In this document: in pieces, positions 1,177 to 2,073 of the stretch
Position numbering within the stretch: position 1 is the stretch's first letter
How the letters are laid out: each line of letters opens with the position of its first letter
Virus record (IMG/VR): IMGVR_UViG_2663763232_000017
Coordinates: 1 to 8,879 of that record
Reading direction: 5' to 3' (one strand)
DNA from: a virus
Taxonomy: Duplodnaviria > Heunggongvirae > Uroviricota > Caudoviricetes
Length of the DNA: 8,879 nt
Notes under the pieces: model-generated
Database searches by the model: none
What the model saw: the letters and a program-made list of their open reading frames with translations, nothing else
Told to the model about the DNA's origin: nothing
Translations under genes and position numbers: made by a program

Positions 1177-1293
1177 ATGCCCTCCATAGTAACCATATCG
1201 CAATAATACGATATGTACTTTTAGAATGCAAACAAAAAATACATCTTGTGCATGGATGATTTTAGTACAGATCGTAATAATAAGGGTATGAAA
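1177..1293. promoter_or_regulatory. OR-like divergent control region (operators, PR, candidate PRM)
   Basis: 117-bp cro-cI intergenic region. Motif CGAT-N-TGTACT occurs at 1209..1219 (plus orientation) and 1264..1274 (minus orientation). Candidate PRM -10 TAATAA(TAA) at 1275..1283 sits immediately upstream of the cI ATG, which would give a leaderless cI mRNA as in lambda. Confidence 0.45.
1194..1231 (-). promoter_or_regulatory. PR-like promoter (-35 TTGCAT, 17-bp spacer, -10 TATTAT on minus strand) overlapping operator palindrome CATATCG-N8-CGATATG
   Basis: Minus-strand reading TTGCAT (1231..1226), 17-nt spacer, TATTAT (1208..1203), then the cro RBS. The perfect 7-bp inverted repeat at 1194..1215 is centred on the -10. 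Confidence 0.55.
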
Positions 1294-1947
1294 ATGAAAT
1301 GGTATGAACTGGCTAGATCCAGAATGAAAGAGCTCGGCATAACTCAAGAGAAGTTAGCCGAAGAGCTTGGTATGACGCAGGGTGGAATTGGTCACTGGTT
1401 GCGCGGATCTCGTCATCCATCTCTTGACGAGATTGGTGTGGTGTTTAAATACCTTGGTATTGATAACGTCTCATTCAACCACGACGGTACATTTTCACCT
1501 GTTGGCGAATACTCATCTGCCCACGTTAAAAAACAATATGAGTACCCTGTTTTTTCTCATGTTCAGGCCGGGATGTTCTCGCCTGAGCTTAGAACCTTTA
1601 CCAAAGGTGATGCGGAGAGATGGGTCAGCACAACCAAAAAAGCCAGTGATTGTGCGTTTTGGCTTGAAGTTGAAGGTAATTCCATGACCGCGCCAACAGG
1701 ATCCAAGCCAAGCTTTCCTGACGGGATGTTAATTCTCGTTGACCCTGAGCAGGCTGTTGAGCCAGGTGATTTCTGCATAGCCAGACTTGGTGGTGACGAG
1801 TTTACCTTCAAGAAACTGATCAGGGATAGCGGTCAGGTGTTCCTACAACCACTAAACCCGCAATATCCAATGATTCCATGCAATGATAGCTGTTCCGTAG
1901 TAGGGAAAGTTATCGCTAGCCAGTGGCCTGAAGAGACATTTAGTTAA
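1288..1947 (+). CDS. cI: CI repressor (LexA/S24-type autocleaving), lambda-type C-terminal domain with a non-lambda N-terminal DNA-binding domain
   Basis: From [37 protein letters not shown]... to the end the protein is near-identical to lambda CI as recalled; the N-terminal HTH (..[23 protein letters not shown]..) is different. Start is ambiguous: ATG 1288 (leaderless) or ATG 1294 (AAGGG 7 nt upstream); the listed TTG start at 1246 is unlikely. Confidence 0.9.
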
Positions 1948-1979
1948 CAGCCTCACCACTCTAAAACACACAACAATAA

Positions 1980-2007
1980 CCCGACCTTAGCGTCGGGTTT
2001 TCTTTTT
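1980..2007 (+). terminator. Rho-independent terminator immediately after cI
   Basis: Stem CCCGAC/GTCGGG with 6-nt loop followed by TTTTCTTTTT, about 30 nt after the cI stop. No rexA/rexB-like ORFs follow cI. Confidence 0.7.
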
Positions 2008-2073
2008 CCAAAATATAAACCCATTAAATACAAAGCGTTATAAAAAACTAAACCATATTTAGAACATTTTGTA

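Follow-up and report, generated by a model that had tools for sequence, protein, structure and literature searches.

The immunity region of the lambdoid sequence analysed here (the window, that is, the whole stretch of 8,879 nucleotides) is very probably explained by ordinary modular mosaicism. The immunity module, made up of the 5' third of cI, OR, cro and the OL operators, is of the VT2-Sakai / Stx2 II / Nil2 type, and a non-lambda HTH_3 head (residues 1–83), predicted to set operator specificity, is fused in the inter-domain linker to a lambda-type hinge and S24 domain. Recombination breakpoints had been proposed for this region in a first-pass annotation of the same DNA, and they are now backed by a step in identity to lambda inside cI, by the conservation of synonymous sites, by a Cro of different design and by a recurrent boundary at the cI stop codon. 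No result contradicting the mosaic reading was found among the analyses made.

Organisation of the window

The gene order obtained from the open reading frame map and Pfam (O, cII, cro, OR, cI, terminator, OL/PL, N) identifies the window as a lambdoid early regulatory region, from a temperate phage or prophage, in reverse orientation relative to the lambda map (Table 1). Comparison with lambda 33000–40500 confined similarity to short segments, namely the 3' part of cI, the 3' end of cII, positions 1970–2005 and a few patches in the PL operon. Lambda thus resembles the window in the CI hinge and C-terminal domain (98% amino-acid and 93% nucleotide identity), the operon-end terminator, the C-terminal end of cII together with the oop terminator, the general order of genes and the divergent PRM/PR layout, but differs in its DNA-binding head, its operators, a Cro of another type and the presence of rexA and rexB.

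Table 1 Regulatory features of the window, with positions counted from its first nucleotide.
Feature	Position	Strand	Evidence or remarks
O-like replication gene, cut, with iteron-like repeats	1–70	-	
cII, 98 aa	523–819	-	Pfam Phage_CII, E-value 4e-35
oop-type intrinsic terminator, antisense to cII 3' end	547–580	+	12-pair stem at 547–574, then T run
cro, 71 aa, HTH_3 type	961–1176	-	Pfam HTH_3, E-value 4e-12; named cro in 683R2, Stx2 II and VT2-Sakai
PR, promoter-like site	1232–1203	-	
OR, three predicted 17-bp operators	1205–1221, 1237–1253, 1263–1279		Overlap PR and presumed PRM
cI, whole gene	1288–1947	+	Pfam HTH_3 and Peptidase_S24
cI 5' part, head (residues 1–83)	1288–1536	+	HTH_3 at residues 11–58
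cI 3' part, lambda-type hinge, S24 self-cleavage/oligomerisation domain and stop	1537–1947	+	
Lineage-specific spacer, at the position of lambda rexA-rexB (1398 nt)	1948–1969		Shared with 683R2
Predicted intrinsic terminator of the cI transcript	1970–2005	+	Corresponds to lambda 35834–35799, 88.9% identity
OL, three predicted operators (region 2026–2102)	2026–2042, 2059–2075, 2084–2100	+	Overlaps PL
PL, promoter-like	2074–2102	+	TTGACT, 17 nt, TACTAT
N-type antiterminator	2350–2712		Pfam N_peptide, E-value 8e-19

An identity step within cI

Pairwise alignment with lambda produced a step profile and excluded uniform divergence across cI. The 3' part of the gene matches lambda 37637–37233 without gaps from 1537 to 1941 (94.1% over 405 nt, blastn), and over the full 411 nt to the stop codon (1537–1947) the identity is 93.4–93.6% at the nucleotide level and 97.8% at the amino-acid level. 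The 27 mismatches in this segment fall in 26 codons and 24 of them are silent, leaving three replacements (S to C, E to D and a terminal G to S) and 133 of 136 residues identical, with residues 84–219 corresponding to lambda residues 101–236; the description of the C-terminal two thirds of CI as near-identical to lambda CI is thereby upheld. Upstream of the breakpoint, a codon-forced alignment yields 39.8% nucleotide identity. In sliding 30-nt windows, identity to lambda ranges over 0.17–0.63 up to nt 1527 and over 0.83–1.0 from nt 1528, and the maximum chi-square breakpoint lies after nt 1536 (chi-square of 229, reached by 0 of 1000 permutations). A breakpoint had been anticipated around 1540–1560; the sharp step inside cI is indeed present, while its position shifts by a few bases to 1536/1537. 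Since synonymous sites are conserved 3' of the step, protein-level constraint alone is insufficient to account for the conservation of the tail. An overlapping gene or cis-element was considered as the cause of the synonymous conservation, but the alternative-frame open reading frames at 1382–1687 (+) and 1563–1811 (-) had no support.

Nucleotide 1537 is the first base of the codon for Tyr84, equivalent to lambda Tyr101 (mature numbering), and the junction falls within the inter-domain linker, 10 residues ahead of the Ala-Gly scissile bond (A94-G95). The same 1537 boundary was obtained against lambda, HK97 and HK544; HK97 and HK544 were rejected as independent junctions, both having lambda-type heads and this same boundary. 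Variable sites in the 3' segment are shared patchily among phages, which suggests continuing exchange, and because of this patchiness the junction at 1537 is probably the visible edge of repeated exchanges and not one datable event. The start codon of cI may be either ATG 1288 or ATG 1294.

The domain content of CI agrees with the position of the step. The HTH_3 match scores 42 bits against a Pfam cutoff of 23, as in repressors of the LexA/CI type, and the Peptidase_S24 match reaches 100 bits (E-value 9e-29), with Ala94-Gly95, Ser132 and Lys175 invariant in an alignment with the lambda-type CI family, as in an S24 domain. The best PDB match is the lambda repressor 3bdn (E-value 3e-96), and alignments to the lambda C-terminal fragments 8gmu and 2ho0 start at query residues 83–84. 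As far as the alignments go, it is the DNA-binding head that was exchanged, and the hinge and S24 domain were retained as a unit. Given 98% identity to the solved lambda C-terminal domain, this unit is predicted to provide dimerisation, cooperative oligomerisation and RecA-stimulated self-cleavage via a Ser/Lys dyad, as in lambda CI, and SOS induction as in lambda is expected of the window prophage.

DNA-binding head, Cro and operators

The N-terminal DNA-binding domain, cro and the operators had been noted to differ from those of lambda, and each comparison agrees. The sole local match between the CI head and the lambda head covers 26 residues over the helix-turn-helix (46% identity), BLASTP gives no alignment between the window Cro and lambda Cro, and the lambda operator consensus (TATCACCGC..GGTA class) has 0 matches in the window at up to 3 mismatches. 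Neither the CI head with its operators nor Cro is therefore of the imm-lambda type. The window Cro aligns instead with the CI head of the same window (35% identity over 62 aa, E-value 5e-13), and the recognition helix, TQG(G/A)IGHW, is nearly the same in both, as would be expected if they read the same operators. In this immunity type, Cro and the head of CI appear to be paralogue-like; lambda Cro and the lambda CI head share no common fold. Judged by these comparisons, the head, Cro and operators form a different switch design from that of lambda, beyond mere divergence.

The 13-mer AGTACAnATCGTA occurs in three exact copies in the window, at 1207–1219 (-), 1264–1276 (+) and 2086–2098 (+), which overlap PR, the presumed PRM and PL. 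OL holds an exact AGTACACATCGTA at 2086–2098, and the repeats fall into families D1, I1 and I2. Operator coordinates were transferred from the Stx2 II depositors' annotation via a collinear alignment (93% identity on the OR side and 82% on the OL side), and each of the six operators annotated in Stx2 II has a conserved counterpart in the window. The operator specificity is likely to be identical to that of Stx2 II, although the OL region is just 82% identical.

The 3' flank of cI

The observation that cI is directly followed by a terminator, with no rexA or rexB, was borne out. Only 22 nt lie between the cI stop codon (1945–1947) and the terminator region, so that the RexAB exclusion system is not part of the window, and no rexA or rexB remnant was detected anywhere in it, tblastn of lambda RexA and RexB returning chance matches (E-values of about 5–10), which excludes a degraded rexAB. 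There is no similarity to lambda between 1941 and 1970. The terminator scan placed a hairpin of 8 pairs at 1978–1999, followed by a T run, with an energy of -12.4 kcal/mol in the window vs -18.0 kcal/mol in lambda. The stem reads CCCGAC/GUCGGG in the window; lambda has CCCGGC/GCCGGG, with G-C in place of A-U. Such a compensatory change speaks for a functional hairpin.

The homologous lambda segment starts in the last rexB codons and serves as terminator for the cI-rexA-rexB operon. The sequences on either side of rexAB are therefore conserved, and the two phages differ by a clean indel (1398 nt in lambda vs 28 nt in the window). The same terminator follows unrelated sequence in the Stx1a phage L007. 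Downstream of the cI stop codon, six phages present four unrelated sequences, one shared by the window and 683R2, one by lambda and HK544 (which part after 31 nt), one in HK97 and one in Stx2 II, and gene content from cI to PL varies across lambda, HK97, HK544, Stx2 II and VT2-Sakai. The cI stop codon is a recurrent boundary. A junction at this stop codon had been proposed, and the unrelated sequences 3' of it support that placement in general; lambda homology itself already ends at 1941, two codons short of the stop, and HK97 homology reaches 1947. Since the terminator 3' of cI and that 3' of lambda rexB are homologous, rexAB can be regarded as one occupant of a cargo slot that is empty in the window. 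The interval between cI and N is described as a hotspot of mosaic diversity, citing Degnan 2007, in PMC8585504.

The 3' end of cII and the oop terminator

A similar pattern was claimed for the 3' end of cII and the oop terminator, lambda-like against a different sequence upstream, and it recurs in the alignments. The CII protein is 43% identical to lambda CII in a local alignment, with the C-terminal 19 residues identical, and at the nucleotide level the last 58 nt of cII alone are lambda-like (527–584, corresponding to lambda 38649–38592, 94.8% identity by blastn). This stretch of lambda homology is bounded by the cII stop codon on one side and by 584/585, inside cII, on the other. We take the hairpin at 547–580 to be the oop terminator, by its position on the lambda map. 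As a side observation, a small open reading frame of ~47 aa (MRKTQENKRVNHRK…) lies at 357–497 (-) between cII and O, in the position of HK97 gp53 and of a 162-nt 'hypothetical protein' of 683R2 and HK544; its start overlaps the expected oop promoter region.

Relatives and prevalence

The segment 1150–2120 is 98% identical in the phages vB_EcoP-720R6, Dewey, vB_EcoP-683R2 and Louie, and for 1150–1947 dozens of Stx phages, among them Stx2 II, 2851 and Nil2, show about 91% identity. VT2-Sakai matches window positions 527–1947 at 93.0% over 1422 nt and Stx2 II is collinear at 93.2%, the range for Stx2 II and Nil2 being 91–93%, while the head alone (1288–1536) is 95.2% identical to Stx2 II and 99.6% identical to 683R2. 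The cI head, OR and cro are collinear with those of VT2-Sakai, Stx2 II and Nil2, which places the window in their immunity group. All of VT2-Sakai, Stx2 II, Nil2, 2851, 683R2, 720R6, Dewey and Louie have the same cI head, tail and junction and the same cro and operators as the window. The last four also share with it the lack of cargo and the terminator, whereas in the Stx phages about 1.5 kb of other open reading frames separates cI from PL, where the window has none. 683R2 differs from the window in the 5' part of cII and in N.

At least 1206 of 5426 complete E. coli genomes match the 1150–2120 segment, and 776 of the 5426 cover at least 80% of it; the match in strain Z142-1 extends over all 971 nt at 99.9% identity. 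Among the partial E. coli matches listed, every one starts at query position 388, which is window position 1537. In the protein database, the lambda-like C-terminal domain (at least 80% identity) is joined to at least four head classes. These are the window's own class (P0001, 1686 member sequences), a class in Salmonella and Enterobacter about 48% identical to the window head with a C-terminal domain of about 80% identity, the lambda class (P0034, 97% C-terminal and 14% N-terminal identity) and a class of proteins of 212–215 residues. The reverse combination also exists (P0029, 81% N-terminal and 58% C-terminal identity).

Two further observations concern CI homologues. The E. coli homologue P0105 has a third head class and a C-terminal domain that is lambda-identical only from a deeper point, so that a second intragenic junction lies about 35 residues further into the protein than that of the window. 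The VT2-Sakai record NC_000902 (10900–11600) has an in-frame stop inside the helix-turn-helix of cI (…GMT*GGIGHW…) and cI is annotated there as two fragments; Gln occupies this position in the window, Stx2 II and 683R2, and the window cI is intact.

The same pattern, a protease domain near that of lambda/HK97 with a head of another specificity class, is found in the P22-like epsilon34 gp46 and in phage L c2, but in the C-terminal domain the identity of the epsilon34 and L repressors to lambda is 80% (98% for the window CI), and their heads are ~50% identical to the window head. According to PMC2629481, the epsilon34 repressor combines a protease domain like that of lambda/HK97 with a head whose relatives are in L, VT2-Sa and Nil2. 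PMC10742460 attributes to Fattah et al. 2000 the finding that VT2-Sa CI has high C-terminal and low N-terminal homology to lambda CI. Clade I Stx-phage CI is reported to have 61% overall identity to lambda CI (PMC8951638), about the overall figure expected of such a chimera, provided that Clade I shares the CI type of the window, and cI and cro have been repeatedly co-transferred (PMC9836094). The mosaic arrangement is already known and widespread, having been described for VT2-Sakai-type Stx phages in 2000.

Alternative explanations

Vertical descent from a lambda-like ancestor without recombination, with head, cro and operators diversifying and the C-terminal domain held by purifying selection, would be compatible with heads that are still distantly homologous (46% over the 26-residue helix-turn-helix) and with the very low dN/dS of the C-terminal domain (3 replacements among 27 differences). 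Such descent is nonetheless highly improbable, as synonymous sites are kept as well (93–94% nucleotide identity vs about 40% in the head), the change occurs within one codon, Cro is of a different family from lambda Cro, and the identities of the two domains are uncoupled in both directions (97% C-terminal with 14% N-terminal in P0034, 58% with 81% in P0029). A chimeric contig assembled from two co-resident prophages sharing the C-terminal-domain sequence could arise where short-read assemblies switch between copies, since the 411-nt segment is repeated among prophages with up to 4 matching places per E. coli genome. The probability of this artefact is negligible, however, given that independent and complete E. 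coli chromosomes carry the identical 1150–2120 arrangement at 97–99.9%, that sequenced phages carry it at 98%, and that phage vB_EcoP-683R2 is collinear with the window throughout 961–2332, from cro as far as the N leader.

The history of the cI–terminator junction is a separate matter. The empty state may be secondary, an ancestral rexAB or other cargo having been deleted with the terminator left behind, which we regard as possible though on the unlikely side. Homology in the terminator starts 8–9 nt upstream of the lambda rexB stop codon (AACAAGAATAA in lambda vs ACAACAATAA in the window), as if the final rexB codons had been kept, and the conservation of both rexAB flanks points the same way. 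Against a loss, tblastn found no protein-level remnant of RexA or RexB in the window, the 22–28 nt between the flanks are unrelated to the lambda cI-rexA spacer, and the many cargos in the slot fit repeated insertion or replacement at a hotspot equally well. An insertion in the lambda lineage and a loss in the window lineage are both compatible with the data.

A modular account of the immunity region

Under modular mosaicism, which we favour, the step at 1536/1537 would reflect recombination between different immunity types, within or beside the conserved sequence coding for the C-terminal domain. The region between the cI stop codon and the conserved terminator would act as a cargo (moron) slot, holding rexAB in lambda and unrelated genes elsewhere; with the slot empty in the window, the cI transcript would end right after cI, and no Rex exclusion function is encoded. 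The 3' end of cII with the oop terminator could then be a short conserved segment bounding the exchanged region on the opposite side. The lambda-type C-terminal domain, the cII 3' end with oop and the post-cargo terminator appear to be common to several immunity types, with exchange boundaries at their edges.

The region is thus a case of modular phage evolution in which repressor head, Cro and operators would travel as a unit, the conserved C-terminal-domain coding sequence and the conserved terminator would act as homology anchors, and the slot after cI would accommodate defence genes, rexAB among them, as cargo. In annotation, the phage should be assigned VT2-Sakai-type immunity and not lambda immunity, although CI is roughly two-thirds lambda-like, and no Rex exclusion should be recorded. 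Current understanding is unchanged by these findings.

It is conceivable, albeit unlikely, that repressors of different immunity, present in the same cell, assemble into mixed dimers or higher oligomers via the shared C-terminal domain. Mixed oligomers would be possible because that domain is ~98% identical between the window and lambda-immunity phages and occurs in at least 1206 of 5426 E. coli genomes, some with several prophages. If they form, the stability and SOS induction thresholds of co-resident prophages would be coupled, and the effect could underlie cross-immunity between lambda and VT2-Sakai. Such cross-immunity was seen by Fattah et al., according to PMC10742460, whose authors raise cooperative binding between the lambda and VT2-Sakai CIs as a hypothesis.

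Other features of the window

At the scale of the entire window, no record among the phage records and complete E. coli genomes contained it at 80% or more, and modules alone are shared. N is HK97-like (87% to HK97) and unlike lambda N, and erf, abc2, kil and cIII-type genes lie farther along, in common with HK97, HK544, mEp213 and P22-like E. coli phages. Rfam at gathering thresholds gave 0 matches over the whole window, so that the spacer, terminator and oop region fall within no curated RNA family, and ARAGORN detected no tRNA genes.

Within the cut O-like gene (-), GGGCAGCTCCTGCCCCAC occurs three times (6–23, 30–47 and 51–68), each copy with an inverted repeat GGGCAG/CTGCCC inside it; by their sequence, these copies look like origin iterons of a non-lambda type. 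The leader between PL and N (2104–2349, 250 nt) contains a boxB-like hairpin, AGGCUGAAAAGCCU, at about 2171–2184 and a long stem pairing ~2195–2215 with ~2318–2338, which closes just 5' of the N ribosome-binding site. Its minimum free energy is -85.2 kcal/mol (z = -3.9), it is 87% identical to HK97 with no Rfam match, and its structure recalls the structured lambda N leader.

Patches at 2971–3009, 3323–3371, 3870–3990 and 5048–5095 are kept in nearly all lambdoid phages compared, while the intervening genes vary. The first contains a ribosome-binding-site plus ATG motif (TTATTTGAGGTGA.ATATG) that is repeated at ~3374–3392, the third corresponds to lambda 34045–33925 at 97.5% and has a terminator-like hairpin at its end, and the last is the lambda cIII core at 100% identity. 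These patches would agree with the 'boundary sequences' concept for phages of the P22-like and HK620-like groups. Finally, a tRNA T-arm-like sequence, GGTTCGATTCC, lies at about 8640–8670, just upstream of an AlpA/Xis-like open reading frame (8679–8879), and may be an att-site-related remnant.
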